NCBI GenBank assembly: GCA_049997875.1
Contig: JBEKRC010000004.1
Span: 8,928-72,927, forward strand
From: Minisyncoccia bacterium
Lineage (GTDB): Bacteria > Patescibacteriota > Minisyncoccia > UBA6257 > 2-01-FULL-56-20
Reading direction: 5' to 3'
Length of the DNA: 64,000 bases
Shown here: positions 3,116 through 60,553 of the stretch, piece by piece
How the letters are laid out: the number at the start of each line of letters is the position of its first letter
How positions within the stretch are numbered: the first letter of the stretch is position 1
Translations under genes and position numbers: made by a program
Notes under the pieces: model-generated
Database searches by the model: none
What the model was told of the DNA's origin: nothing
What the model saw: the letters and a program-made list of their open reading frames with translations, nothing else

Positions 3116-4012
3116 TCATTTCAGGAAATTATAGGGAAAGTTGCTGAATCTTCTCTTCGCGAACATCGGTACGGAATGAAAGAACTGGATCCATGCCCTA
3201 AGGTAGTGTTTTTTAACATAGATGTCCTCATTGTGCTCAACGAGCAGCTTGAATATCGCCAAAATTGTTTCTTGATAATACTCGTGGCTATTTGTGCGCA
3301 GAGTCTTTCGCCATAGATTGATTATTCTTTCGTTCTCGGGGGCGTTGATAAACGTTTCTACGGAGAAGAGAGACCTCGTCCCCAATATGCTGAATATTTC
3401 ATGTGCATCCGGATCGCCAATGGTTAGATATTTCCCTTTGTATGCATAAAGGATCCTCGGGAAGGGATCGTATCCGGTCTTGTCCTCTATCAAAAATGGG
3501 AGGCGGACGTTGCGCTCATCCAACTCTCTCTTTAGACGTTTGATCTGTTTCTTTCCATAATAATCGACGACGAAATGCTTCGGGTGCGGGACGATGATCA
3601 TCATTTCCCGTTTGTGAGCGACATACTCTAAAAACTCTTCTTCGGTGAGATTAGCAAAGATCTCTTCGTTAGGCAGAATTCGGTAATGAAGCTTCTCGGT
3701 GTAGCCCCTCAGATCGTCATGATTGCCGAAAGTCAGGAGTTCCCTTCTTGCAACTAGCTTTAAAACGGCGTCGGTCATCCTTTTTTTTATTTTCCACTGG
3801 ATGCCCGGGATGACCAGTACCTTTTCGGTGGAAAAACTTATCGCTTGGCTTACCAATAATGGAATTACGTTATGGTCCGATACGCCTAAAACCGCATATT
3901 CTTTTTCTTTCAGGGTTTTTTCCAAGTATGCCACATATTCGCGAATTGTGGTCGAGCTATCATGGGATCTTTCCGAATGGACGTGAAAAAGGAAAAAGAG
4001 GCGCGGGCTCAC
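3116..4012 (-). CDS. PHP-domain metal-dependent phosphoesterase
   Basis: PHP motifs HVHSERSHDS (HxH..S.D) and VSDHN; 298 aa; AT-rich relative to flanks. Confidence 0.6.
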   Translation of the reverse strand: MSPRLFFLFHVHSERSHDSSTTIREYVAYLEKTLKEKEYAVLGVSDHNVIPLLVSQAISFSTEKVLVIPGIQWKIKKRMTDAVLKLVARRELLTFGNHDDLRGYTEKLHYRILPNEEIFANLTEEEFLEYVAHKREMMIIVPHPKHFVVDYYGKKQIKRLKRELDERNVRLPFLIEDKTGYDPFPRILYAYKGKYLTIGDPDAHEIFSILGTRSLFSVETFINAPENERIINLWRKTLRTNSHEYYQETILAIFKLLVEHNEDIYVKKHYLRAWIQFFHSVPMFAKRRFSNFPYNFLK

Positions 4013-4031
4013 AAGATAATGTTAACACGGC

Positions 4032-6254
4032 TCACGCCGCAGCCGGTTCCAGCTTCAGGGAAACGATCTTTGACGTCCCGTCCTCGCCAAGCGTCACGCC
4101 ATAGAGGATGTCCGCCACCTCCATCGTCGCGCGGTTGTGGGTCACGATGATAAATTGCGTCCGCTTTGAAAAATCTTTGAGCATGTCGCCGAAGCGGCGG
4201 GCATTGCGCTCGTCAAGAGGCGCGTCAACCTCGTCCAGCACAAGAAACGGCGGCGGACTTACGGCCACCATCGCGAAAAGCGCGGCGATGCCGACCAAGC
4301 TCCGCTCGCCGCCCGAGAGCATGTCAAGCGTCGTAACCTTCTTCCGCGGCAGGCGGATGTCAATGTCCACGCCGCCGTCTTTTTCTATCGCCATTTCCTC
4401 CTCGGCCTTCTCTCCCTCGTCACGCATCGCTCCCTCGCCAGCATCGCCTTCCTCCGCGTCGCCCGCCTCCACTTTTGCCACCCTTGGCTTTTCCACCTTC
4501 AACTTTGCCATGCCGCCGCCGAACATAAGCGCGAAGAATTTGCCGAATTCCTCATTGATCTTCGTAAGCGATTTATCAAATTCCGTTTTTATCTTTTCGC
4601 TCAATTCCTGCATGAGGCGCGTGAGGTCCGCAACTGCTTTTTCAAGGTCTTCGGATTCCTTTGTAAGGAAGGCGTACCGCGTTTCGGTGTCGCGCGCTTC
4701 TTTCATAAGTGCTTGATCAATCTCACCGATGGATGCAAGATCGCCACGCAGTCGGAAAATCCGCTGCTCCATTGCATGAAGATCGCCCTCGTGCATGGCT
4801 TCCGGAACCTCCGCGTGCGCGAATTCCTCCGCGCGCCGCCCCGCCTGCTCAATTTGGTGCAATACCTCGCCGCGCCGCAAATCCACCCGCTCTTTCTGGA
4901 GCACATGCTCCCGATGCTCGTTTTCCCATTCCCCTATCCGGTCCTTCGCCGCCTGCACATCCGCAACCGCGGCCTTGAAAACCTTGTAAAAACTTTCCTG
5001 GCTTTGCTCAAAGGATTTTTCTTTTTCCCGAAGCCCAAGAACTTCTTTCTCCAGAGAAACGAGGTCGCGGGATATTTTCTCAAATTGCGCCTTAAGCCCG
5101 CCCTCCGCGTCTTTCGATTTTCCGCCTTCCTTTTCTTTCTCTACGAGGACATCCTTAATTTCCTCCAGGATATTTTCTGCCGTCGCATGCAGTTCAAGCG
5201 CATCTTCCTCAAGCGCGCGTTCCAGCTCTTCCTTCACCATACGCACCAGGTTCAAAAGGCGCTCTGCGGAGGGACTGCTGCTTGTGACGCCAGTTTCTCC
5301 CGATTCTCTGAGCTCAATCTGCGCCTCCAAGCGCCCGAGATCTTTCTGCAGGGCACTTCGTTTCTCCCCCAACGACCCGATCTCGGCGCGGATCGCCGCA
5401 AGGTTCTTCTGCTCCGCCGGCTGGCTCGCTTCAATCTCCGCCTGCCGCGTTTCCGCCTCGCGCCGCGCGCGGTCCAAAATCTCCCGCTGTTTCTCGTTTA
5501 CCGCAATCTTTTCTTCCACTTCCCCGCTCTGCCGCGCGAGCTCCTTCAATCGGAAGCCGAAAAAGATCGCCTCCAGCCCGCGCAATTCCTCCTCAAGCGC
5601 GCCGCGCTTTTCCCACCGGTTCGTCTGCCGCTTCAGTGACCGCAAGTGCGGCAGGATTTCTTCAACCAGCGCTTTCGTTTTATCCAAATTGATCCGGCTA
5701 TTCTTCAACCGCCGCTCCGCATCCGCCTTTTTGAGCTGATATTCGCGGAGACCTAAAAGTTCCTCTATCATCTCGCGGCGCTCCATGGGCGTTGAGCGGA
5801 CAAAAAGATCGCTGTCGCCCTGGCCTATAATGATGAGCCCGCGCGAGCCCATGCGCGCCTTTGCAAAGAAATCAACAAGGTCGCGGAGAAGCACCTCCGC
5901 CTTATTCAAAAAATACTTGCTGTCGCCGCCGCGCGAAACCTGCCGCGTGATCATAACCTCCTCAAAATCCACCGGGAAAAACTTGTTCCGGTTCTCAAAG
6001 TGCAAACTGGCGTTCGCCATACCCACGCGCGGACGCTTCTGGGTCCCGGCGAAAATAAGGTCTTCCACTTTACCGCCGCGCAGATTTTTCGCATCCCGCT
6101 CGCCGAGAAGCCATCGCATGGCGTCCACCAAGTTTGATTTCCCTGACCCATTCGGCCCCACGATCGCCACAATCCCCGCCGGAAATTCCAAAACCGTCTT
6201 CCCCGCGAAGGATTTGAATCCGTTCAATTCAAGCCGCTTCAAAAAATGTGCCAT
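4032..6254 (-). CDS. smc: SMC-like chromosome segregation ATPase, short form with no recognisable hinge
   Basis: N-terminal Walker A FKSFAGKTVLEFPAGIVAIVGPNGSGKSNLVDAM; C-terminal signature LSGGERSLVGIAALFAM and Walker B FLVLDEVDAPLDE; the middle is a long Glu/Arg/Lys-rich coiled coil. ATG at 6254 (MAHFLKRLELNGF), 5 nt downstream of the rnc stop. About 740 aa versus ~1150-1200 for canonical SMC. Confidence 0.75.
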   Translation of the reverse strand: MAHFLKRLELNGFKSFAGKTVLEFPAGIVAIVGPNGSGKSNLVDAMRWLLGERDAKNLRGGKVEDLIFAGTQKRPRVGMANASLHFENRNKFFPVDFEEVMITRQVSRGGDSKYFLNKAEVLLRDLVDFFAKARMGSRGLIIIGQGDSDLFVRSTPMERREMIEELLGLREYQLKKADAERRLKNSRINLDKTKALVEEILPHLRSLKRQTNRWEKRGALEEELRGLEAIFFGFRLKELARQSGEVEEKIAVNEKQREILDRARREAETRQAEIEASQPAEQKNLAAIRAEIGSLGEKRSALQKDLGRLEAQIELRESGETGVTSSSPSAERLLNLVRMVKEELERALEEDALELHATAENILEEIKDVLVEKEKEGGKSKDAEGGLKAQFEKISRDLVSLEKEVLGLREKEKSFEQSQESFYKVFKAAVADVQAAKDRIGEWENEHREHVLQKERVDLRRGEVLHQIEQAGRRAEEFAHAEVPEAMHEGDLHAMEQRIFRLRGDLASIGEIDQALMKEARDTETRYAFLTKESEDLEKAVADLTRLMQELSEKIKTEFDKSLTKINEEFGKFFALMFGGGMAKLKVEKPRVAKVEAGDAEEGDAGEGAMRDEGEKAEEEMAIEKDGGVDIDIRLPRKKVTTLDMLSGGERSLVGIAALFAMVAVSPPPFLVLDEVDAPLDERNARRFGDMLKDFSKRTQFIIVTHNRATMEVADILYGVTLGEDGTSKIVSLKLEPAAA

Positions 6255-6258
6255 TGCG

Positions 6259-6948
6259 TTACGGGAGACGTTTTTGGAGCGCGTGCTTCGCTGCGTCAAG
6301 TTCTGCTTCCTGTTTGGATGCTCCCTCGCCGTCCGCCACAAACTTGTCCCCGAAATAAACGCCCATTTTGAAGACACGCTGGTGCGCGGGACCCGTTTCT
6401 TCCATCACGCGATAGGTAGGGGTGATGCGCAATCTTTCCTGGATCAATTCCTGCAGTTCGCTCTTCGCGTCCCGGTAGCTTTTCGTCTTCATCACATCCT
6501 CCAGGTTACTCACAATGTTCTTTTTCACGAACGCGTGAACTTTTTCAATCCCCTGGTCAAGGTACATCGCACCGATCACCGCCTCAATCGCGTTCGCGAG
6601 GATAACCTCGCGCGCCTTGCCGGTATCTTTCCGTTCGCCGCGCGACATCAGAATGAAACCATCCAAACCGATGGACTCCGCGATGCGCGCCAAAATTTGG
6701 TAGTTCACAAGCGCCGCGCGGAGCACGGTCAATTTTCCTTCGGGATAATCGGGAAATTTTGCGAAAAGCGCTTCCGAAACGAGCAATTCCAAAACCGCGT
6801 CGCCGAGATACTCCAGGCGCTCGTTGTGCGGCAACCGCCATCTCGGGAACTCATTCAAGTACGAACGGTGGGTCAGCGCTTCGGTCAATAGGTCTTCGTT
6901 CTTGAATGAAATTCCGAGTTTTTTCTGTAATGGTGTGGTATCCATCAT
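6259..6948 (-). CDS. rnc: Ribonuclease III
   Basis: RNase III signature HRSYLNE...[13 protein letters not shown] plus a C-terminal dsRBD ([18 protein letters not shown]). Confidence 0.9.
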
Positions 6949-28249: not shown

Positions 28250-28956
28250 GTCTTCCCTTGTGCAATAACGGTCGCGACGAATTGTTCTTCAAGCGGCTTC
28301 CCGGCGCAGAACTTCTTCACCGACCCCGCGTAGAGCAGCCTCCCCTCGTGGATCACGCCCATCTCGTCGCACACCTCCTCAACGTCATAGAGGATATGCG
28401 TGTTCAAAAAGATCTTTCTCCCCTCTTTTTTGAGCGTGAGCATCACCTCTTTCATCTCGCGCCGGCCGAGAGGGTCAAGCCCGTCCAGCGGCTCGTCCAA
28501 AAAAAGATATTCTGGATCGCCCACCAGTGCCTGCGCAAAGCCAAGCCGCTGGCGCATGCCCTTTGAATACGTCCGCACTTCCGCGTTCCTCGCCTCGTAG
28601 ATGCCCGTGCGCTTGAGGAGCGCTTCATAGTGCGCCGTGCGATTTCCCCCGCGCGCGCCCACAAGCTCGTCGCAAAAGCGCATGAACGCGAGCCCCGTCA
28701 TCCGTTCGTAAAAATATGGCGTCTCCGGCATATAGCCCATCCGCCGCTTTGAGGCCACATCGCACGAGGCCTTCCCGTCCAGCATGATCGCCCCTGCGGT
28801 CGGCTGGAGCAATCCCACGATCATTTTCATGACCGTCGTCTTCCCCGCCCCGTTCTGGCCGAGAAATCCGAAAATAGGCACGTCCACCGCGAGCGAAAAA
28901 TCGTCCACTACGTTCCGCTTTTTGTAGGTCTTTGTGAGATGGGAAAATTCAACCAT
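28246..28956 (-). CDS. ABC transporter ATP-binding protein
   Basis: Walker A GQNGAGKTT, signature-region LSGG-like segment, Walker B LFLDEP; ATG at 28956 (MVEFSHLTKTY). Confidence 0.85.
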   Translation of the reverse strand: MVEFSHLTKTYKKRNVVDDFSLAVDVPIFGFLGQNGAGKTTVMKMIVGLLQPTAGAIMLDGKASCDVASKRRMGYMPETPYFYERMTGLAFMRFCDELVGARGGNRTAHYEALLKRTGIYEARNAEVRTYSKGMRQRLGFAQALVGDPEYLFLDEPLDGLDPLGRREMKEVMLTLKKEGRKIFLNTHILYDVEEVCDEMGVIHEGRLLYAGSVKKFCAGKPLEEQFVATVIAQGKT

Positions 28957-29725
28957 ATTCCGCCGGGATGCTTTCGTATTTGGTTTTTGTGACAATCACG
29001 TGATCCAGCAAGCTGATGCCGATGATCTTCCCCGCTTCCACGATCTGGCGCGTGATCGCAAGGTCGGCCTCGGAGGGTTTTGACACGCCCGACGGATGGT
29101 TGTGTGCAAGGATTACTGCGGAGGCGGAATACTCAATCGCGGGACGGAACACCTCGCGCGGATGGATAATATTGGAGGTCAAACTGCCAATGGAAATCAC
29201 TTCGTCGTGAACCAGCTGATAGTGGCTATCAAGATAAAGTCCCCGCAGATGCTCCTTCGGCAGGTCGCGCATATCCTTCAAATATTCGTACACCTGATTT
29301 GCGGTCCGGATGATGACCGGCTTTTTCCCGTCGGCTCGGAAAAATCTCCGTCCGAGCTCAAAGCACGCCACCACCTGGCACGCTTTCACGAGCGGGATGC
29401 CGAGGGCTTCCTGTATTTTCTTCGGGTCTTTTTGGTGCACAATGGCGCTCTCACCATATTCCTTAAGAAGCCGGCGCGACATGGCAAGTACACCCTCCTT
29501 TGTGGTGCCTACGTTTAACACTATGGTAAGAAGCTCTGTGACTGACAATGCGCCTGCTCCATACTTCAACAGCTTCTCGCGCGGCTTTTCTTCTGTGGGA
29601 AGGTCGCGTAACCGAAGCACGTATTGTTTCTCTCCCCCATCCAAAATCAAATCGTCCGCACGCTGAACGTAGAGATTGCCGCGCAGTCCAGTGGAAGTGG
29701 TCATGGTTTTACGCCTTGGTTTCAT
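28949..29725 (-). CDS. radC: RadC-like JAB-domain protein (UPF0758)
   Basis: HhH N-terminus and JAMM-like HNHPSG motif. Confidence 0.8.
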   Translation of the reverse strand: MKPRRKTMTTSTGLRGNLYVQRADDLILDGGEKQYVLRLRDLPTEEKPREKLLKYGAGALSVTELLTIVLNVGTTKEGVLAMSRRLLKEYGESAIVHQKDPKKIQEALGIPLVKACQVVACFELGRRFFRADGKKPVIIRTANQVYEYLKDMRDLPKEHLRGLYLDSHYQLVHDEVISIGSLTSNIIHPREVFRPAIEYSASAVILAHNHPSGVSKPSEADLAITRQIVEAGKIIGISLLDHVIVTKTKYESIPAEYG

Positions 29726-29752: not shown

Positions 29753-31861
29753 TCACGGTCGGAGCGCGGGCAGAGAAACTACGAACCGGCTGCCCCTTGA
29801 AAGTTCGCTCTCTGCACGGACGGTGCCGCCGTGCGCTTCTATAATCTGCCGACAGATGTCCAATCCAAGGCCCGTGCCGGAAGTGCCGTCCGTTTTGATC
29901 CGATAAAAACGCTCAAAAATATGCGGTAGGTTCTCCGGCGCGACGCCCGAGCCGGTGTCTTCAACAACAATCAGAACATTGCCGCCGTCCGCTTTTCCCA
30001 AAAGCGCTATCCGCCCGCCGCGCGGCGTGTGCTTAAGCGCGTTGCTCACGAAGTTCAGAATCACCTCTTTGAGCTTGTCCCTGTCGCCCGCAACGCGCGC
30101 GGGATCGCTCGCATAGGAAAGAAGTACTCCTTTATTTTCTGCGAGGACAATGCAGTCGTCGTACGCCTCTCCCAAAAGATCTTCCACTATAATTTCCTGT
30201 TTGTGAAGTTTCTCTTTAGAAGAATTTAATCTCACGATGGTAAGAAGGTTATCGGTCGCCCGCGACATCCGTTCAATGGTCTTTGACATCACTCCGAGCG
30301 CCGTCTTGCGATTCCCCTTCCGACTCCCTTCCAAAATCTCCATGTTGCCCTTGAGGATGGCAACTGGGGTCTGCAGTTCATGCGACGCGTCGGTGATAAA
30401 CTTGGCTTGCGCTTCCTGCATGACGCGTACCTCTTCCGTGCGCTCCGCGACGCGCATCTCCATCTCCTCGCCATAACGCCGCGCCTCTTCGTAAAGGCGT
30501 GCGTTTTCTATCGCCATCCCCGCCTGATGGGCAAGGACCCCAAGAAGCTCAATATCCTTTGACCTGAAAATATCGCCGGAGAGCTTCTTCCCCAAGAGCA
30601 TCACGGCCGCCGTCTTACCTCGCACCATAAACGGTACGGCTGCGCCAATTTTGAGCTTCTCCGCACACGCGAGCGTGGTGCGACGCTCGGTCTCCGACAC
30701 ACCTTGCCCACTCTCCCATCTCCCCTCCCATTCCTGGAGAAGAAACTGATCCGTTTTTTTCTCAAAAATATTCACGCAAACATCTTCGTACTCCCGCTCA
30801 AGAAACGACTCATCGACCCCGTGAAAAAACGCACGGACCTTCCGCTTATCGGGGGCATCGTATGAAAATACGCTTCTTTCCGGTTTTATCGTCCGCATAA
30901 GGAACGTGTCCAAGGATTGCAAGAGGACCGCAAGGTCAATGGTTGAATGCAAGAGCCGCCCGAGCTCCCGGACCGCGGCCGTATAATCGTAATCATTGCG
31001 GAAAAAGAAACGATCGGTCACGCGCTCAAAGAAACGCCGGAACCAGACGAAGCCGAACGCGCCCACGATGGCCGCCGCGACGTCGTCGGCCCATCCCTCG
31101 GTTTGCGTGAACATCCTCACTATAAAATCTATCCCGAAGAAAATGCACGCAATGAGGCCGATGGAAAACGCGTACAGGAGCCCGCGCTGGACAACGATGC
31201 GGATATCCATGAACTGATGCCGCACGATGGCATACGCCGTGCTTGCAATAAAGACGATGGAAAAGAGCGGGCCGAGAAGATTGAATTCCACGATACCAAA
31301 AAGAGGAAGAAATGTATTGGAAAGGAACGCGAGGAAAAGGAATGCGCACGCGCCCGCCGCGAAATAGCGCATCTGCACGCGATGGATGCCGCGGAGGCAG
31401 CGGTACTTCCGAACCATCGTAACGATGCTCCATGCGATGTAAGCGCCGACCACGAACCCGAAAAGCGGGAAGAGCGGGCCATGCTGAGGTTCCAGATATC
31501 CCGCAGCATTGAACCGAGCGGCGCGAATGAACGCGCCGAACGGCGTAAGCAATACGAGGCCGAACCACGGCAAGAGCAAAAACAAGAAGCGCTTACGAAG
31601 AGGCCTGCTTTCGGGGAAAACTTCCGCAAGTAAAACAAAACCCAGGACCACGATCTCGCCGCTCCAGAATGCGGCGATCGCGGGCCAAAATTGTCCCGTG
31701 AGAGGAACGAGCATCATGCTCGCGCTCCACCCCACGATGCCGAGCGTGAAAACGAAGAATGAGCGATGGACGATCCCCCGCGGATTTTTCAGGAACACAT
31801 ATATGCCGATGCCGAGATTGAGGCCGTCTATGACGATGTGCGTGACAAGTTCCAAAAGCAT
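29753..31861 (-). CDS. Sensor histidine kinase with 7-8 TM N-terminal domain, GAF-like region, HisKA and HATPase
   Basis: H-box ASHELQTPVAILKGNMEIL, N/G1/G2 boxes (NALKHT, DTGSGV, GTGLGL); 702 aa. Confidence 0.85.
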   Translation of the reverse strand: MLLELVTHIVIDGLNLGIGIYVFLKNPRGIVHRSFFVFTLGIVGWSASMMLVPLTGQFWPAIAAFWSGEIVVLGFVLLAEVFPESRPLRKRFLFLLLPWFGLVLLTPFGAFIRAARFNAAGYLEPQHGPLFPLFGFVVGAYIAWSIVTMVRKYRCLRGIHRVQMRYFAAGACAFLFLAFLSNTFLPLFGIVEFNLLGPLFSIVFIASTAYAIVRHQFMDIRIVVQRGLLYAFSIGLIACIFFGIDFIVRMFTQTEGWADDVAAAIVGAFGFVWFRRFFERVTDRFFFRNDYDYTAAVRELGRLLHSTIDLAVLLQSLDTFLMRTIKPERSVFSYDAPDKRKVRAFFHGVDESFLEREYEDVCVNIFEKKTDQFLLQEWEGRWESGQGVSETERRTTLACAEKLKIGAAVPFMVRGKTAAVMLLGKKLSGDIFRSKDIELLGVLAHQAGMAIENARLYEEARRYGEEMEMRVAERTEEVRVMQEAQAKFITDASHELQTPVAILKGNMEILEGSRKGNRKTALGVMSKTIERMSRATDNLLTIVRLNSSKEKLHKQEIIVEDLLGEAYDDCIVLAENKGVLLSYASDPARVAGDRDKLKEVILNFVSNALKHTPRGGRIALLGKADGGNVLIVVEDTGSGVAPENLPHIFERFYRIKTDGTSGTGLGLDICRQIIEAHGGTVRAESELSRGSRFVVSLPALRP

Positions 31862-31924: not shown

Positions 31925-32506
31925 TTATGGCGGAGAAAAACGAACCTTCCCTTGCGCGATAAGCGTTTCCGTCCTCCCGCGAAGTACGCGTTCGGCGGAA
32001 AGGAGCGCAATGGCGGCAGGGATAGGAGCGGGAGGCAGAAGATAGTAAGGACGAACACTTTTGGGAATTCGCTCCAAAACGGGCCTCCCCGAAAGCCTGA
32101 AGATCCGGATGCCCATGCGCGAGAATCGCCGCGCAACCTGCGGTTTGATCTCCCCTATGCCCCATTCGCGGCCTTTACAGATGGCGTACTGAATTGCGGT
32201 ATATACGAGTGCCTCGGAAAGCTCCGGTACCGTGGTGACCCAGCGCCCCAATTGCGCAACTTTCGCGCGATCGAACACGCCCGGGAATGATCCGTAATCC
32301 AGCGTGTATGTTTCTTCAAGAGGAAGCGGCTCCCCCGCGCTCAAGGAAAGCGCCATGGCTCCCACAAGTTCGCCATCACGCCATCCCACGAACACAAGCT
32401 CCGGCAATTCGTGAGGATCGCAACGATATTGTATATGCATCGCTTGCTGGACGAACAAGGCAACCTTGTTTCTTTCATATTCGTTCATTCGGCGTATCAT
32501 AATCAC
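31925..32506 (-). CDS. GNAT-fold N-acyltransferase of the N-acyl-amino-acid-synthase / thermostable-hemolysin-like type (Acetyltransf_5-like)
   Basis: Segment VGWRDGELVGAMALSL...AKVAQLGRWVT...ALVYTAIQYAICKGREWGIGEI...RFSRMGIRIFRL resembles the NAS family pattern (W.DGELVG..RL ... vaElsRlav ... qya). The start abuts the E1-like stop, suggesting translational coupling. Confidence 0.45.
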   Translation of the reverse strand: MIMIRRMNEYERNKVALFVQQAMHIQYRCDPHELPELVFVGWRDGELVGAMALSLSAGEPLPLEETYTLDYGSFPGVFDRAKVAQLGRWVTTVPELSEALVYTAIQYAICKGREWGIGEIKPQVARRFSRMGIRIFRLSGRPVLERIPKSVRPYYLLPPAPIPAAIALLSAERVLRGRTETLIAQGKVRFSPP

Positions 32507-33487
32507 TTACCACCACCTCCCTTTTACAACCTTTGTTTCCATCTTTGCGGCATCGAAATAACAGTAGCCCGGCATCTCGGGAATTTCTGCGATAACGCGC
32601 CTTATCCCGGAATTCGCAATGAGAGCGAGCAGCGCGCGATTGGCAGCGAAGCCGCAGGCGAACGGCGGGTTGGTTGCAATGACCGAGCCGCATCCCTCTT
32701 CACGCAACCGCCTTTCCGTGAAATCGCGGTTTTTTATCGGCGAATCGTCCGCGCAATACTCCGGCCATTCAGAGCAGAAGCTCCGCGTGACCGCGCGCAT
32801 AACTCGCATTACTTCTTCCGGTCGCGCATTCCGGCTTCGCATCTTCCGCTCAAGATCAACCGCCTCCTCGTACTCAAAACCGAGACATTCTTCCACGGTC
32901 ATGCTGCGCGGCGTGAAAAGGAAAAGCTGCGCGCCGAAGCCGACGGCGCTGCAAACGAAGACGGGGATGCCGAGCTCCCGCGCGGCCCGGTGCAACAATA
33001 TCCGCGAACCGATGCACCAAAATTCAATTTCGTCGCAGAGCGCGTGACAGCCGTGCAGAAAATCAAAAACGGTGTTCTCGGAAATACCCGTGGGATACGC
33101 AACCACGATTGTGTCGTCGGCAATCGCGCGCATCATCTTCGCCGTTTCAAGCGCTTTTGATTTTCCGATGGTAAACCGAGTTGCCCCAGACTGCCTGTTG
33201 ATGTTTGAGATTTCGAAAACCTCGTTGTCGGCAATGCGAATCTCTCCCACGCCGAGGCGCAGGAACGCTTCCGCAAGTTCGCCACCCATGCCGCCGCAGC
33301 CCGCGATGGCGATGGCGGAACTCCGGACGATATCTTGTTCGTCCTGCGTGATCCATCCAATGTTGCGATCCGTACGTTCGTGATAGTAGCTTTCATTGAA
33401 TTGCCTTGGTAAAAGCCGGTATGCAATCCCTTTGTACGCTGCCTCCGGAATATCGTGACAATCTATTGTGCTTGTTTGATTTGCCAT
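32507..33487 (-). CDS. E1-like ThiF/MoeB/HesA-family adenylyltransferase
   Basis: Rossmann nucleotide motif IAIAGCGGMGGELAEAFLRLGVGEIRIADNEVFEISNINRQ, plus four C-terminal Cys (CSEWPEYC...C...C). The ATG at 33487 has AAGGAGA 6 nt upstream; alternatively a GTG at 33550 with GGGAGG 10 nt upstream. Confidence 0.7.
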   Translation of the reverse strand: MANQTSTIDCHDIPEAAYKGIAYRLLPRQFNESYYHERTDRNIGWITQDEQDIVRSSAIAIAGCGGMGGELAEAFLRLGVGEIRIADNEVFEISNINRQSGATRFTIGKSKALETAKMMRAIADDTIVVAYPTGISENTVFDFLHGCHALCDEIEFWCIGSRILLHRAARELGIPVFVCSAVGFGAQLFLFTPRSMTVEECLGFEYEEAVDLERKMRSRNARPEEVMRVMRAVTRSFCSEWPEYCADDSPIKNRDFTERRLREEGCGSVIATNPPFACGFAANRALLALIANSGIRRVIAEIPEMPGYCYFDAAKMETKVVKGRWW

Positions 33488-33603
33488 ACGTTTCTCCTTT
33501 TTTGACATACACCCGAACTTCAAGGTGCTCCTCGGAGGATGGCACAACACCCATTAAAATCCTCCCAAATAAAGATTAAATTTTTATTAAAAGAAATTTG
33601 CGG

Positions 33604-33635
33604 TTAACAATTATTTAATGTTCAGTGAGTATAAT
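33604..33635 (+). promoter_or_regulatory. Putative sigma70-like promoter: perfect -10 TATAAT (33630..33635) with a weak -35 (TTAACA)
   Basis: Sequence only; the -10 lies 7 nt upstream of the in-frame ATG at 33642, implying a leaderless hicB-like mRNA. Confidence 0.4.
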
Positions 33636-33641
33636 ATCCCC

Positions 33642-33878
33642 ATGACGATAGCAATTGAAAACAAGGTCGGTCTGCCGCATATTCAAAGTATGCCGAAGCG
33701 GGAATACACAGCGGTATATAAAAAAGAGGGGCGTTGGATCATCGCCTGGATTGAAGAAGTGCCGGGAGCGCACACTCAAGGACGCACTATGGAGGAGGCA
33801 AAAGAAAACCTCCGTGAAGCGCTTACGCTTATCCTTGAGGAGAACAAAAAGATGGCATCTTCAAAAACGCACCTATAA
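33642..33878 (+). CDS. hicB: HicB-family (UPF0150) antitoxin-like protein with no adjacent HicA
   Basis: EYTAVYKKEGRWIIAWIEEVPGAHTQGRTMEEAKENLREALTLILEE matches the HicB/UPF0150 core. Possible starts are 33618 (track), 33642 (leaderless, preferred) or 33690. Confidence 0.6.
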   Translation: MTIAIENKVGLPHIQSMPKREYTAVYKKEGRWIIAWIEEVPGAHTQGRTMEEAKENLREALTLILEENKKMASSKTHL

Positions 33879-33895
33879 TTGATATCCTTAACTCA

Positions 33896-34432
33896 ATGCC
33901 TGGTCTTACCATTAACATTAGTTGGGAATATTTCCTCGGCATAATGGCGGCCTTAATTTTGGGCGCATGGTATACGAATGGACGTTTTACTGCCATAGAA
34001 ACGTCTATTCAATGGCTCAAAGATACAATCAACAACTTGAAGACGGCTAGCGACAATGCGAGCATTCCCGCCTATAGCTCTCGTTCCCCCGTGAGGCTTA
34101 ATGCGACGGGAGAAAGCTGGTTGCAAGAAAGTGGGTTAAAAGAATATATAGGCACTCATAAGAAAGATTTAACAAACATTTGCGAAGAAAAAAGAGAAAG
34201 CAACCCCTACGAAGTACAGGAGCATATTTTTAAAATGTTTGATACGATGGTGCTTGAACAAACTTTTGAGAATAAATTAAAGAAATTTGCTTTTGAAAAA
34301 GGGACAACTTTGAACGTCTTGAGGAGAGTAGGAGCTATTTATTTTCGTGATTTGTGTTTAAGCGAATTTGGGATGAAACAAGAGGATATTGATAAAAATG
34401 ATCCAGAAAAAGGTAGCGGTGCAAAAAAGTGA
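33896..34432 (+). CDS. Hypothetical protein with N-terminal TM helix (178 aa), AT-rich
   Basis: Single N-terminal hydrophobic helix then a charged globular region; no known motif; 18 nt downstream of the HicB-like gene. Confidence 0.4.
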   Translation: MPGLTINISWEYFLGIMAALILGAWYTNGRFTAIETSIQWLKDTINNLKTASDNASIPAYSSRSPVRLNATGESWLQESGLKEYIGTHKKDLTNICEEKRESNPYEVQEHIFKMFDTMVLEQTFENKLKKFAFEKGTTLNVLRRVGAIYFRDLCLSEFGMKQEDIDKNDPEKGSGAKK

Positions 34433-38861: not shown

Positions 38862-41282
38862 TTATACTTCCTTCTTTCTCTCCCCCACCGAATGACCGCC
38901 GAAGCGGCTGCGGAGCGCGGAGAGGATTCGACCCGTATAGCTCGGCGCTTTTCGGGAACGCATGCGGAATTTGAACGCATCTTCTATCGCCGGCAGTTTC
39001 ACGCGCCACTTGCGGCCGGTCTTTAGGGTCCATTCACCCTCGCCGGTCGCGGCGACCGTGCCAGATACCGCATGTAGCTCCTTGCCATAAATGCGGAACG
39101 CGTCTTCCATCCAGCCAACGAGGCGCGATTCAATGACGCTGCCACGGTTGTATACGCGCGCAATCTTCTCAAGATCAAACTTGAATGGCGATTTTTTCAT
39201 GAGCGCGAAACCTTCCGCCAAGGACTGCATCATGCCGTATTCAATGCCGTTGTGGACCATCTTTACGAAATGGCCTGCGCCCGCATCGCCGAAATACGCG
39301 TAGCCCAAGGGCACGGAGAGGTCGGCGAAGAGCGGCTCCAGATATTCAAATGTTTTGCGGTCGCCGCCGATCATGAGCGAGCCGCCGTAGCGCGCGCCGT
39401 GCGGGCCGCCCGAGAAGCCCACATCCACAAACCGAATGCCGCGCTTGCCGAGAAGCTTCGCCCGCCGCACGCTGTCCTCAAAGAACGAATTGCCGGCGTC
39501 TATCACGATGTCGCCTTTTTGGAGGTGCGTCACAATGCCATTCCTGCTCCGTCCCGCGCCGAAGAGAAATTCGTCCACTCCTTTTCCGGCGGTGATCATG
39601 AGCCAGATCACGCGCGGCGAATGTCTTCGCGGCACCGCGAGCTCCGCCGCGAGTTCTGCGAGAGAATACGCCGCCTCAAAACCTTCTCCCTCCAGCTGTT
39701 GCAAGGACTCCGGCGAGCGATTGGCTGCGATGACGCGCCATCCTTTATCGCGCAGCTGCCATGCCACGTTCGCACCCATCTTCCCGAGCCCGAAAATGCC
39801 TATTTCCTTCGGAAGCGCCGAGGTCCCATTTCTTTCCGCCGCGTCATCAAATGCCGCCGCTTCGGCGACAATCTTACGGCCGCCCGGCGCGTAGTGCCGC
39901 AGCGGGACCAAGTTCTTTTTCCACGCAATGATGAACGGGTCTATGAACTTCCACATCGCGGCGATCTCCTCGCTTGAGACAAAGAGCGTCTGGTCGCCCG
40001 CGATGCAGTCCAAAATCAGTTTTTCGTATTCCTCGGTATATTGAGCATGAAGAACGGTTTTCCGAAAATCAAAATTAAATGTCCGTTCTTCAAACTCAAA
40101 CTTGTGTCCCGGCTTTTTGGAATGAAACTTGATGGTGATCCCCTCGGTCGGTTCAAGGTGAATGAAAATGCGGTTATGATGATGTTCGTTCCCTATGCAA
40201 AGGCAGGGCTGTTCGTGGCGCAGCACAATCTCTATCTCTTTGATCGGCTCGCCGAGGCGCTTCCCGCTTTCCATGACGAGCGGCATTCCCTCCCACCGCG
40301 CGCCGGTGAGGAATCCTTTGATACGAAAGTACGTTTCGGTTCTTGAACGGGGAGAAACGCCGGGTACGGAACGGTAGCCGTCGTATTGCGCGCGGAACGA
40401 GTTCTTTGCGGCTTCGCGGGGCGTCTGAATGACGAGGCGCCTCAAAAGCTCCGCGCGGAGCGGACGGATCGCTTGGGCGTCGTACCGCGCGGGCCGTTCC
40501 ATGGCAACGAGCGCGAGCATCTGCAGAAGATGGTTCTGTCCCACATCTTGTAGAGCGCCCACGTGGTCGTAGAATGGGCCGCGTCCCTCGACGCCGATTT
40601 TCTCAAACAGGCGGATGTGCACGCGCGCTATCGTACGGCTCGTCCATTCGTTTTCAAAAAGATCGTTCGCGAACCGGAACATCAGAATATTCTGCAACAT
40701 CTCCTTCGCCAGATAATGGTCTATCCGATACACTTGTTCCTCCCGAAAGAGCTTTGTCAGTTGGGCATCAAGCGCCTTCGCACTCTTCTCATTGTTGCCG
40801 AACGGCTTTTCCACAATTACGCGCGTCCATCCCTCGTTCGGACCGCAGCCGTCGGTCAGATGGCTGCGGTGCAGGTGGGCAAGGATGAGCGAATAAAACT
40901 GCGGCGGGACCGAAAGATAAAAAAGTTTGTTCGCGCACATGCCCCACGCATCGTCAATATTTTTCAAAAGATCGTTGAGCGCCAGGTAGTCCTCCGGAGA
41001 ATCAAACGCCAACCGATGGTACGCGGCAAGGTCAAGGAACGATCGTACGGTTGCGGCGGGCGCGTGCGATGTCCTCTCTTTAAGAATGGTGCGGAGGTGC
41101 GTACGGAGATCGTCGTCGCCCCACGCGCGCCTTGAAACGCCTACGAGTTTGAACTTTGGCGGCAGCTGCTTTTTTGCATGCAAATTAAAAAGCGCCGGCA
41201 CGATCTTTTTCGCCATAAGGTCGCCCGTGGCGCCCAAGACCACGAGAATGGTAGGAATGGTTTGTTTCCGCTCATCTATCAT
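38862..41282 (-). CDS. zwf: Fusion protein: glucose-6-phosphate dehydrogenase (N-terminal ~480 aa) + 6-phosphogluconate dehydrogenase-like NAD(P)-binding enzyme (C-terminal ~300 aa)
   Basis: N-terminal GATGDLMAKKIVPALF and Zwf active-site segment RIDHYLAKE. The C-terminal half has the 6PGDH Rossmann GIFGLGKMGANVAWQL plus ...GDAGAGHFVKMVHNGIEYGMMQ; 806 aa. Confidence 0.8.
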   Translation of the reverse strand: MIDERKQTIPTILVVLGATGDLMAKKIVPALFNLHAKKQLPPKFKLVGVSRRAWGDDDLRTHLRTILKERTSHAPAATVRSFLDLAAYHRLAFDSPEDYLALNDLLKNIDDAWGMCANKLFYLSVPPQFYSLILAHLHRSHLTDGCGPNEGWTRVIVEKPFGNNEKSAKALDAQLTKLFREEQVYRIDHYLAKEMLQNILMFRFANDLFENEWTSRTIARVHIRLFEKIGVEGRGPFYDHVGALQDVGQNHLLQMLALVAMERPARYDAQAIRPLRAELLRRLVIQTPREAAKNSFRAQYDGYRSVPGVSPRSRTETYFRIKGFLTGARWEGMPLVMESGKRLGEPIKEIEIVLRHEQPCLCIGNEHHHNRIFIHLEPTEGITIKFHSKKPGHKFEFEERTFNFDFRKTVLHAQYTEEYEKLILDCIAGDQTLFVSSEEIAAMWKFIDPFIIAWKKNLVPLRHYAPGGRKIVAEAAAFDDAAERNGTSALPKEIGIFGLGKMGANVAWQLRDKGWRVIAANRSPESLQQLEGEGFEAAYSLAELAAELAVPRRHSPRVIWLMITAGKGVDEFLFGAGRSRNGIVTHLQKGDIVIDAGNSFFEDSVRRAKLLGKRGIRFVDVGFSGGPHGARYGGSLMIGGDRKTFEYLEPLFADLSVPLGYAYFGDAGAGHFVKMVHNGIEYGMMQSLAEGFALMKKSPFKFDLEKIARVYNRGSVIESRLVGWMEDAFRIYGKELHAVSGTVAATGEGEWTLKTGRKWRVKLPAIEDAFKFRMRSRKAPSYTGRILSALRSRFGGHSVGERKKEV

Positions 41283-58972: not shown

Positions 58973-59722
58973 TCATATCGTTGGAATACTGAACGAGAAA
59001 GCGGATCCCTTGCCCTCGCCTTCGGACGATACCGAAATTTTCCCGTTATGGGCTTCCACGAACATCTTCGCGACGTGGAGGCCAAGGCCGCTGCCGCGGA
59101 TCTCGCCCTTCACGCGCTCGTCGCGGACGAACTCCTCAAACAAAAACGGCTGGACTCCCTCCGAGATGCCGATCCCGGAATCCGCGACCGAAAGCACGAC
59201 ATTTCCGTCCTTCTCTTCCACGTTCACCTTTACAAAACCTTTTTCGGTGTACTTCACGGCGTTGTCAACCAAATTTTTTATCACGTGCTGCAGCTTTTGC
59301 TCATCGCCATAGATCATGATCTCTTTTTGCGGCGCCTGGAATTCCAAATTCAGGCCTTTGCTTGACGCAAGATGGCCCAGTTCCTCCGCCGCCTGTCGCG
59401 CGAGTTTCACGAAATCAATGTTCGCCATTTGATATTCAATCCTCCCCTCTTCAATCTTGCGAAGATCTATCACATTGTCCACAAGGTTCACGAGGTCTTC
59501 GGCTGCAAACTCAATTTTTGCCATGACTTCTCTCGCGCGGTTGTCTATTTCGCCGTAATAGCCGTCACGCAAGAGCGCCGCGTAGCCGCGGATAATGCCC
59601 AATGGCGCCTTCATCTGATGCGACGTGAGCGCCAAAAGATGCGTCTTGAAATGGTTCAGGTCATTGAGCTTTCTGTTGTCCTCCTCAAGCTTCTTGCGAA
59701 GCTCGTCAGCATCGGCGCTCAT
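58973..59722 (-). CDS. Cytoplasmic histidine kinase (HisKA + HATPase)
   Basis: H-box LTSHQMKAPLGIIRGYAALL, N-box NLVDNAVKYT, G-boxes DSGIGI / GSGLGL; ATG at 59722. Confidence 0.8.
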   Translation of the reverse strand: MSADADELRKKLEEDNRKLNDLNHFKTHLLALTSHQMKAPLGIIRGYAALLRDGYYGEIDNRAREVMAKIEFAAEDLVNLVDNVIDLRKIEEGRIEYQMANIDFVKLARQAAEELGHLASSKGLNLEFQAPQKEIMIYGDEQKLQHVIKNLVDNAVKYTEKGFVKVNVEEKDGNVVLSVADSGIGISEGVQPFLFEEFVRDERVKGEIRGSGLGLHVAKMFVEAHNGKISVSSEGEGKGSAFSFSIPTI

Positions 59723-59768
59723 GCTTATATGATACCAAGCCGTTTTAACTCTCGCTCTGCAACGAGGG

Positions 59769-60167
59769 TCACTTTTTTGCGAGCATTTCCCGCACCCTTG
59801 CCACAATCACATTCAGGTCCGCGGTCTTATCAATGTAATCCTCCATGCCCAATCCCTTCGCGAGCCTATCGCGGTCGCCCTGGGTCGCGGGCCATGGATC
59901 TTTCAGGTTGCTCAGAAACGCGATTTTTATGTCTTTTGTCTCCGGATTCTGTTTGATCGCAAGCGCCGCATCGGTACCGGTCTCCCCGCCGGGCATGCGG
60001 ACGTCCATAAGAACAAGGTCGGGGTGCAATTTCGCCGCGGCATCAACTCCCTCTTTGGCATTGTAGGCCACCACGGGATCAAAGCCGGATGCCCCAAGCT
60101 TCACGGACATAATTTCCAGAAGTTCGTGCTCGTCGTCAACAATGAGGACAAGCGGTTTTTCCCTCAT
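59769..60167 (-). CDS. Single-domain response regulator (CheY-like receiver)
   Basis: LIVDDE, phospho-acceptor Asp in LVLMDVRMP, conserved Lys; 132 aa. Confidence 0.85.
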   Translation of the reverse strand: MREKPLVLIVDDEHELLEIMSVKLGASGFDPVVAYNAKEGVDAAAKLHPDLVLMDVRMPGGETGTDAALAIKQNPETKDIKIAFLSNLKDPWPATQGDRDRLAKGLGMEDYIDKTADLNVIVARVREMLAKK

Positions 60168-60553
60168 GAAAGCAGTGCCGTTATCTTTTCCGCAAGCACG
60201 TCAAGGTCGTCGGTCTTTTTGAGGTACCCCTGCGCGCCGAATTCTTCGGAGAATTTCCTGTTGATGTCCTGCATGTCCAAGCGCGGGTCGCCCAGGCTCG
60301 TAAGAAATGCCACCTTGATGTCTTTCAATGCCGGGTCTTCCTTCATTTTGAGCACCGCCGTCGCGCCGTCCATCACCGGCATCTTGACATCCATAAGGAC
60401 AAGGTCGGGCTTTGCTTTCGCCATCTTAAGGAGCGCCGCTTGTCCGTCCTCCGCGGTATCCACGCGATAGCCCATCGCCAAAAGTTTGGTTTGGAAAATC
60501 TCGCGGAAATCCGGCTCGTCGTCAACAATCAGTATGAATGGTTGCCCTGCCAT
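60164..60553 (-). CDS. Single-domain response regulator (CheY-like receiver), tandem paralog
   Basis: LIVDDEPDFREI, LVLMDVKMP; 129 aa; overlaps the upstream receiver gene by 4 nt. Confidence 0.85.
   Translation of the reverse strand: MAGQPFILIVDDEPDFREIFQTKLLAMGYRVDTAEDGQAALLKMAKAKPDLVLMDVKMPVMDGATAVLKMKEDPALKDIKVAFLTSLGDPRLDMQDINRKFSEEFGAQGYLKKTDDLDVLAEKITALLS

Follow-up and report, generated by a model that had tools for sequence, protein, structure and literature searches.

The locus and its conserved gene order

The window analysed here, a 64-kb stretch of the genome of a Minisyncoccia bacterium (Patescibacteriota; contig JBEKRC010000004.1, positions 8,928 to 72,927), carries genes for a ThiF/E1-like adenylating enzyme (E1), a GNAT (GCN5-related N-acetyltransferase)-fold protein and a sensor histidine kinase, arranged head to tail and all on the minus strand (Table 1). 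The original prediction had singled out the first two genes, on this strand and with the E1 stop codon abutting the GNAT start, and both their positions and the abutting codons are confirmed from the sequence.

Table 1. Features of the E1-GNAT-kinase locus (positions are those of the window)
Feature	Positions	Strand	Remarks
ThiF/E1-like adenylating enzyme, 326 aa	32507..33487	minus	longest open reading frame reaches GTG 33550 (32507-33550)
LuxI/FeeM-fold GNAT, 193 aa, predicted N-acyl amino acid synthase	31925..32506	minus	GTG start adjoins E1 stop
Sensor histidine kinase, 702 aa, HisKA_7TM - GAF - HisKA - HATPase	29753..31861	minus	directly 3' of GNAT; domains by Pfam
13-bp stem-loop	31890..31919	minus	in the 63-nt GNAT-kinase spacer, from 5 nt past the GNAT stop
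E1 gene upstream leader/promoter region	33488..33625	minus	includes GGGAGG-N6-ATG
Out-of-frame 53-aa open reading frame across the E1 start	33393..33554	minus	judged non-coding

One genome per species was scanned for relatives of this locus. After the closest relative, described below, the next ones are Paceibacterota/Parcubacteria bins. In total 413 relatives were confirmed, the best 80 were analysed with our own open reading frame (ORF) calling, clustering and hidden Markov models, and the cassette counts below are taken over the 47 closest species-level loci. The original prediction had considered that the pairing of E1 and GNAT might not be conserved in any related genome. In 41 of the 47 loci, however, a GNAT directly follows the E1, being of the window type in 37 and of a FeeM/Acetyltransf_5 type, which takes its place at the same position, in 4. 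Beyond these 41, one locus has an E1-GNAT fusion and another has a third, weakly FeeM-like protein at the GNAT position. The neighbourhoods of the homologues also hold two partners that the original prediction had not named. A kinase of the same family (HisKA_7TM, GAF, HisKA, HATPase) comes after the GNAT in 37/47 loci, and an OmpR-type regulator (Response_reg + Trans_reg_C) lies directly upstream of the E1 in 29 of those 37; the other arrangement, E1-GNAT-kinase without a preceding regulator, is found in the other 8. The cassette genes share one strand, the median gaps between them being 106, 0 and 55 nt, the flanking genes are otherwise unlike between loci, and the loci span many named Patescibacteria lineages. 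In our literature search no paper describing this cassette in Patescibacteria was found. Four of the loci keep the pair without the kinase, and Legionella is among the hosts of kinase-free pairs.

The kinase has about 8 hydrophobic segments joined by short loops in its first 252 residues, from which it is to be read as an intramembrane-type sensor, almost wholly membrane-embedded; its catalytic core is generic. The spacer between the GNAT and the kinase folds into a perfect 13-bp stem-loop with a minimum free energy of -29.3 kcal/mol (z -5.8; 0/200 shuffles equally stable) and no canonical U-tract. A stable hairpin of differing sequence occupies the same spacer in most related cassettes; of the 34 spacers that were of sufficient length for folding, 22 gave z <= -3. 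The hairpin may set the ratio of synthase to kinase, either by attenuation between the cistrons or by stabilising the mRNA.

Some cassettes carry accessory genes. An S-adenosylmethionine (SAM) methyltransferase (Methyltransf_11, 2e-23) is located in or beside the cassette in four loci, and a gene of the dimethylarginine-dimethylaminohydrolase/arginine-deiminase (DDAH/amidinotransferase) fold in three, one of which also has the methyltransferase. Their presence hints that the product is tailored and that the substrate is perhaps a guanidino amino acid. A second arrangement was seen in six Bacillales loci (around positions 4000-6750 of each), in which a FeeM-type GNAT precedes a 252-aa E1 of the same superfamily and the pair adjoins a divergently transcribed, multi-transmembrane HD_5 (HD-GYP-type) protein in 6/6 cases.

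The junction of the two enzyme genes in the window reads ...GGGAGGTGGTGG TAA GTG ATT ATG..., with the E1 stop at 32507-32509 and the GTG of the GNAT at 32506, and a GGGAGG motif is located within the 3' end of the E1 gene, before that GTG. Because the stop and the GTG abut, the homologues of the GNAT share the N-terminus MIxxRxM at the same GTG start position, and the E1-to-GNAT gap has a median of 0 nt in the 41 related loci, we conclude that the two genes are translationally coupled. The E1 itself most likely starts at ATG 33487 (MANQTS..., with AAGGAG 5 nt upstream), since this start agrees with the 326-aa call in the closest relative, a locus with 87% identity on a complete 898,885-bp chromosome, and with the N-termini of homologues and fusions. 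The GTG at 33550, which had been offered earlier as a possible E1 start, is therefore probably not the start.

Across the start of the E1 gene, the 53-aa ORF that had been proposed as a possible substrate peptide is present with its GGGAGG-N6-ATG, but it does not behave as a coding sequence. Differences from the closest relative fall on the three codon positions as 22/21/60 in the E1 and 21/12/42 in the GNAT, an excess at the third position, and as 6/8/4 in the 53-aa ORF. Codon changes in this ORF number 18 (14 non-synonymous, 4 synonymous), and its Gly-Gly becomes Gly-Asp in the relative. In the 45 other loci neither a counterpart of this ORF nor a conserved small precursor ORF was found, many of them having no ORF of at least 15 aa in their 72-170 nt regulator-E1 gap, and the ORF has no family match. 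We judge it to be non-coding.

The sequence ahead of the E1 gene may have another role. Identity to the closest relative is 90.7% in the 140 nt upstream of the E1 and 89.5% in the E1 coding sequence, which puts conservation of the leader no lower than that of the gene. The leader may carry regulatory sites. The ~70 nt before the ATG of the 53-aa ORF (33555-33625) are ~95% identical by eye, AT-rich and marked by TTAAATAAT / TTTAATAAAAATTTAAT repeats, and could be an operator or a promoter. A scan for promoter and terminator consensus sequences around the genes gave nothing better than shuffled sequence, and no consensus promoter.

The E1-like enzyme and the GNAT

The E1 matches Pfam ThiF (PF00899, E 2.8e-29) and stays well under every cut-off of the curated NCBIfam models. 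It scores 63.2 bits against adenyl_thiF (cut-off 275) and 26-52 bits against the MoeB models (cut-offs 266-633). Its best NCBIfam scores are to 'hypothetical protein' models, PRK08223 (146 bits against a cut-off of 266) and then PRK14851 and PRK14852. A literature search on these three names and NF006077 found nothing; our guess, guided in part by the fusion architectures, is that these four may be of the TyzB/OxzB type. The best match among profiles of solved structures is TcdA (E 3.4e-16), whose equivalog model gives 36.9 bits against a cut-off of 304. The top structural neighbour is AclA (PDB 9egb), for which the literature gave nothing usable and of which no functional use is made. A relation to the Cap2 proteins of cyclic-oligonucleotide-based antiphage signalling (CBASS) or to other bacterial E1-E2 defence systems was considered and rejected: the PADLOC matches reach at most 43 bits and cover the nucleotide-binding segment only, and the GNAT and the kinase have no match.

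The adenylation site of the E1 is intact. Residues D87, N97-R98-Q99, K111, D152 and E155 do not vary among the 28 sequences of the E1 family, with E155 aligned to D127 of ThiF and to an Asp of an OxzB-type (ThiF-nitroreductase) fusion, so that a Glu stands in place of the Asp. The equivalent residue of TrzS, Asp217, is essential for cyclisation (PMC12856293). The only Cys residues conserved in the family are C64, C147, C151 and C179. Two Cys pairs had been noted in the E1 from the start, but they are not the zinc CxxC pairs of ThiF and MoeB. None of the 28 sequences has a zinc CxxC motif, the site of ThiF C169/C172 reading VEEC with a single Cys kept in 18/28, and no crossover-loop Cys is conserved among them. 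The absence of the crossover-loop Cys and of the zinc site fits direct adenylate chemistry. We predict that the E1 is an ATP-dependent carboxylate activator or cyclase.

The source annotation of the gene, 'molybdopterin/thiamine biosynthesis adenylyltransferase', together with the Pfam ThiF match, would make it an ordinary ThiF/MoeB-type enzyme serving a sulfur carrier encoded elsewhere, with the GNAT as an unrelated neighbour. This explanation is hardly credible, as the equivalog models are far under their cut-offs (63 vs 275 bits), the zinc CxxC pair and the conserved crossover Cys are lacking, and both the strict adjacency in 41 loci and the natural fusions of E1 to GNAT are unlike a chance neighbour; the fusions contradict it. 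Among the called genes within 10 kb, on an identical JGI contig and in the 87%-identical relative, no ThiS/MoaD or other ubiquitin-like (Ubl) family, E2, JAB, YcaO or nitroreductase family is recorded. The view of the original prediction, that the E1 lacks such partners nearby and is not an activator of a Ubl or sulfur carrier, is thus borne out by the model scores, the pairing, the fusions and the fold of the GNAT.

The original prediction had likened the E1 to MccB and PaaA, which would imply a pathway to a ribosomally synthesised and post-translationally modified peptide (RiPP), with the E1 adenylating a ribosomal peptide, possibly the 53-aa product, and the GNAT acylating it. MccB and PaaA do share the E1-like Rossmann core and likewise need no Ubl, E2 or sulfur carrier. 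Unlike the window E1, however, they need an N-terminal peptide clamp and a gene for a precursor peptide. The clamp of ~100 residues is absent from the E1 model, in which only a 25-residue beta-hairpin precedes the Rossmann fold; the alignment of MccB begins at chain residue 76, and MccB/PaaA sequences score lowest of the E1 classes compared with it. In addition, the 53-aa ORF has no coding signature and a Gly-Gly that is not conserved, and no small ORF is conserved in the 45 other loci. The peptide pathway is therefore largely refuted and retains very little weight. The idea of a compact two-enzyme route to a small molecule was right, the analogy to MccB and PaaA was not, and the precedent is found in the oxazolone synthetases discussed below.

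An exhaustive phmmer search for homologues of the E1 over 1.84 billion representatives gave ~55 clusters of the full-length E1 family. Outside the family, the next tier has scores of ~113-141 bits and is 35-43% identical within residues 33-205; E. coli ThiF reaches 39 bits. Its architectures include ThiF-nitroreductase fusions (the OxzB architecture), FeeM-ThiF fusions in the opposite order to the window pair, a methyltransferase-ThiF fusion and a ThiF-glycosyltransferase fusion. One ThiF-nitroreductase fusion (P0213) scores 123.2 bits against the E1 within residues 33-205, and a pairwise comparison of the E1 with one such fusion (E 3e-38) covers 171 residues, of which 39% are identical. A FeeM-ThiF fusion can be aligned with 239 E1-domain columns of the alignment of fusions (columns 28-288). 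Its apparent match to the GNAT alignment was discarded, being due to E1 columns contributed by the fusion rows, so that it is informative for the E1 only. A word-indexed search returned 332 E1 homologues, some of them E1-GNAT fusions of ~500-526 aa with the E1 at the N-terminus and a C-terminal GNAT of either the window type or an Acetyltransf_5/Autoind_synth/FeeM type. Because the next-tier fusions score 113-141 bits where E. coli ThiF scores 39, we place the E1 with the small-molecule-tailoring, ThiF-like enzymes associated with N-acyl amino acid synthases (NAS), and not with ThiF and MoeB.

These relatives also bear on the idea that the E1 and the GNAT modify a protein, for example by adenylating or acylating the kinase or the regulator at a side chain or at the C-terminus. 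Most E1-like enzymes act on the C-termini of proteins or peptides (PMC12596934), and the two enzymes of the cassette are tightly linked to signalling proteins. Protein modification is nevertheless very improbable: the nearest relatives of the E1 are fused to nitroreductase, methyltransferase or glycosyltransferase domains of small-molecule tailoring, the fold of the GNAT is nearest to small-molecule N-acyl synthases, and the pair is found without the kinase in Legionella and in other loci.

Separately, nine distant E1 relatives of 295 aa (33-35% identity, with the same C-terminal GKWW ending) occur in Actinomycetota and Proteobacteria with no adjoining GNAT. The genes beside them code for a protein like aspartate/ornithine carbamoyltransferase (STRTRLSFE motif), a major facilitator superfamily transporter and a helix-turn-helix regulator, and the whole looks like a different, apparently undescribed, E1-centred cluster.

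The motifs of the GNAT had been said to resemble those of N-acyl amino acid synthases and hemolysin-like acyltransferases, and this description holds. The protein scores 26.6 bits against T_hemolysin (PF12261), slightly below the cut-off of 27, and matches FeeM (PF21926) at E 6e-4. Its best structural matches are TofI, RpaI, MesI, LasI and FeeM, so its fold is that of N-acyl homoserine lactone (AHL) synthases and FeeM; an ordinary RimI-type acetyltransferase, which had been considered as an alternative, is rejected on this ground. A conserved strand motif, Q/E-L-G-R-W and in the window Q-L-G-R-W, is similar to the E-x-S-R motif of LuxI. The window GNAT reaches no curated family threshold and has no match to the Autoind_synth Pfam, which the FeeM/Acetyltransf_5-type (type-B) GNATs at the same position match weakly. 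The type-B GNATs of the four cassette loci, the Bacillales loci and some fusions score 54-70 bits against the FeeM-like family TIGR03694, the PEP-CTERM/exosortase-associated acyltransferase (cut-off 112), which the window GNAT (type A) does not match. No exosortase context is present.

Compared with LuxI-type AHL synthases and FeeM-type synthases, then, the GNAT has the closest structures and a similar strand motif, and those enzymes make diffusible acylated amino-acid derivatives. It differs from LuxI in usually having a Gln for the Glu, and in a C-terminal RPYYLxPP motif and helix particular to the window-type family. Moreover, LuxI closes its ring by SAM lactonisation, whereas here ring closure, if any, would fall to the separate ATP-dependent E1.

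A proposed synthase and its possible sensor

The oxazolone synthetases OxzAB (bioRxiv 10.1101/2020.06.11.147165), TyzACB (PMC10404671) and TrzAS (PMC12856293), with the related stieleriacine-type clusters (PMC12479983), provide the published precedent for such a pair. In these systems an acyltransferase of the FeeM/AHL-synthase fold makes an N-acyl aromatic amino acid from acyl-coenzyme A (CoA), a ThiF-like enzyme then cyclises the N-acyl amino acid with ATP to the oxazolone, and a flavin oxidase of the nitroreductase superfamily desaturates the product (PMC10404671, PMC12856293). In TrzS R540A, the ThiF domain alone gives the saturated cyclised intermediate (PMC12856293). OxzA/OxzB of Pseudoalteromonas rubra, TyzA/TyzB/TyzC and TrzA/TrzS of Mycobacterium tuberculosis, and the NAS-ThiF-nitroreductase clusters for stieleriacines, thalassotalic acid and kyonggic acid, which are of the same kind, resemble the window pair in setting a FeeM/AHL-fold NAS beside a ThiF-like enzyme with an intact adenylation site. 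The stieleriacine clusters also have a methyltransferase as accessory gene (PMC12479983), as window-type cassettes occasionally do. Unlike them all, the window-type cassette has no nitroreductase-superfamily oxidase, fused or adjacent, its E1 differs in the C-terminal third, and its genes run E1 then GNAT, are sometimes fused and lie within a two-component-system operon. The hosts differ as well, being Proteobacteria, Actinomycetota and Planctomycetota for the oxazolone synthetases and Patescibacteria for the cassette. Because the oxidase is absent and the C-terminal third of the E1 differs, we do not count the window pair as a full member of this group. The combination of a NAS with a ThiF-like cyclase is known; what is new is an oxidase-free pair in a two-component operon, widespread in Patescibacteria.

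On this basis we propose that the GNAT, as its fold and the precedent suggest, would N-acylate an amino acid or a related amino-carboxylate from acyl-CoA or acyl-acyl carrier protein (ACP), and that the E1, as its intact site and the precedent suggest, would adenylate the free carboxylate of the GNAT product with ATP. The acyl-adenylate might then collapse by attack of the amide oxygen to give a saturated 5(4H)-oxazolone, or be captured by another nucleophile. The chemistry would be that of TyzA/TyzB, OxzA/OxzB and TrzA/TrzS minus the desaturating flavin oxidase. A further parallel is TcdA/CsdL, the tRNA t6A cyclodehydratase, also ThiF-like, which adenylates an N-carbamoyl amino acid at its carboxylate and forms a ring of the oxazolone type; it differs in acting on a tRNA nucleoside and in having no GNAT partner.

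The E1-GNAT pair would be co-transcribed with the membrane histidine kinase and, in most relatives, with the OmpR-type regulator, and this two-component system would be both sensor and regulator for the product in an autoinducer-like loop. We read the kinase as a sensor of the product because the synthase genes are interleaved between regulator and kinase and the sensor is membrane-embedded, and because NAS and ThiF-like pairs adjoin signalling proteins in three unrelated lineages, namely in the present cassette, in Bacillales beside the HD-GYP-type protein and in M. tuberculosis, where trzAS adjoins c-di-GMP genes and where the authors remark on the likeness of oxazolones to AHL signals (PMC12856293). 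By functional analogy only, agrBDCA and comQXPA likewise combine signal-synthesis genes, a polytopic kinase and a regulator in one transcription unit, and their kinase sensor is likewise intramembrane and without a large external domain. In contrast, their enzymes are unrelated and their signals are peptides, and sensing of the product by the kinase of the cassette is drawn from gene order and topology.

Overall, the reading that we favour, at a probability of roughly 55%, is that the pair is a small two-enzyme synthase whose product derives from an N-acyl amino acid, and that it is connected to a two-component sensor of its own. That the two enzymes work one after the other on an N-acyl-amino-acid-type molecule is probable, in line with the two-enzyme small-molecule route with an N-acyl-synthase-like GNAT of the original prediction, which the pairing in 41/47 loci, the fusions and the fold of the GNAT support. 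Sensing of the product by the kinase is possible at somewhat less than even odds, and so, at about the same odds, is an oxazolone as the product.

Several observations weigh against this proposal. OxzB-type proteins align with the E1 in its Rossmann half (33-205) only, and the C-terminal 120 residues of the E1 are particular to the E1 family and to FeeM-ThiF fusions, so that substrate and outcome may differ from those of the OxzB type. The likeness to oxazolone cyclases comes from fusions of the OxzB architecture and not from the sequences of TyzB, OxzB and TrzS themselves, and the model of the Rv1355c family scores the E1 at 54.6 bits, no better than the ThiF models (63.2). Every characterised oxazolone system has a nitroreductase/flavin-dependent oxidase (FDO); a tblastn search with three OxzB-type C-terminal domains found none in the 64 kb of the window and none in the other loci fetched, and a saturated oxazolone is hydrolytically labile. 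The strand motif of the GNAT has a Gln where LuxI enzymes carry the catalytic Glu, and it is uncertain what acyl donor would serve in an organism from which fatty-acid synthesis is expected to be missing. As for the sensor, the window and its 87%-identical relative carry E1-GNAT-kinase with no adjacent regulator, and the whole 64-kb window is free of OmpR-type regulators. That the genes are linked to a two-component system shows co-regulation; it is not proof that the kinase binds the product.

The last point leads to the main rival, in which the two-component system only regulates the same pair in response to an external cue (contact with a host or stress on the envelope, for instance), and the product is a membrane lipid, a surfactant or an antimicrobial. 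Pathway-specific two-component regulators are common in biosynthetic clusters, and E1-GNAT occurs without the kinase in the four loci mentioned above. In addition, N-acyl tyrosine derivatives such as stieleriacines show antimicrobial or biofilm activity (PMC12479983, PMC12856293) and C12 tyrazolones may sit in membranes (PMC12856293). On the other side, the synthase genes lie between regulator and kinase in 29 loci, as in autoinducing operons, and the kinase lacks an extracytoplasmic domain to which an external ligand could bind; neither point is decisive. We regard such purely external regulation as unlikely.

The two enzymes might also act in the reversed order, with the E1 adenylating a free acid (fatty, aromatic or amino) and the GNAT acylating an amine from the acyl-adenylate, bypassing CoA and ACP, which Patescibacteria are thought to lack. 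Patescibacteria are also generally reported to be without fatty-acid synthesis, which we count in favour of this order. The E1 comes first and the GNAT second in both gene order and fusions, and ThiF-like enzymes let varied nucleophiles attack the nucleotidylated carboxylate (PMC12596934). Yet FeeM-ThiF fusions of the opposite order exist, and in all characterised NAS and ThiF systems the GNAT acts first and on acyl-CoA (PMC10404671, PMC12856293). The reversed order is improbable, more so than external regulation of the pair. It would also require a GNAT-fold enzyme with an acyl-adenylate donor, of which none is known.

Neighbouring genes and implications

Further genes of the window lie outside the cassette. 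Divergent from and upstream of the E1 are, on the plus strand, an 86-aa HicB/UPF0150-like protein (33618-33878), whose Pfam matches are sub-threshold and whose gene has no call in the 87%-identical relative, and a protein of 178 aa (33896-34432) that matches no family and has a hydrophobic segment at its N-terminus. On the minus strand, a RadC-family gene (28949-29725) comes after the kinase, and RadC is found near the cassette, on either strand, in 9 of 81 analysed loci. Encoded at 58973-60553 (minus strand) are two proteins that consist of a receiver only (129 and 132 aa) and, after them, a soluble histidine kinase of 277 aa; this second small signalling cluster is unrelated to the OmpR-type regulator of the cassettes. 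An 806-aa ORF at 38862-41282 (minus strand) is a fusion of glucose-6-phosphate dehydrogenase and 6-phosphogluconate dehydrogenase, according to the Pfam record of the identical JGI gene.

The physiological role of bacterial N-acyl oxazolones is, according to their discoverers, a major unresolved question, on which signalling has been speculated with no receptor at hand (PMC12856293; bioRxiv 10.1101/2020.06.11.147165). The cassette joins a minimal form of this chemistry to a two-component sensor of its own in dozens of lineages whose gene neighbourhoods are otherwise unrelated, and points to self-made small-molecule, perhaps lipid-like, signalling in Patescibacteria. These bacteria have genomes of ~1 Mb and depend on hosts, and to our knowledge almost no communication systems are known in them. 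A self-contained autoinducer circuit native to Patescibacteria, in which an N-acyl-amino-acid-derived and probably cyclised signal of the oxazolone type is detected by the co-encoded intramembrane kinase, is in its entirety still doubtful. If true, it would be the first quorum-sensing-type system assigned to Patescibacteria, a radiation of tiny episymbiotic bacteria, and would provide the first receptor, and hence the first physiological role, for the metabolites of oxazolone or N-acyl amino acid cyclases. The oxidase-free pair would also reveal what a lone ThiF-like small-molecule cyclase does.

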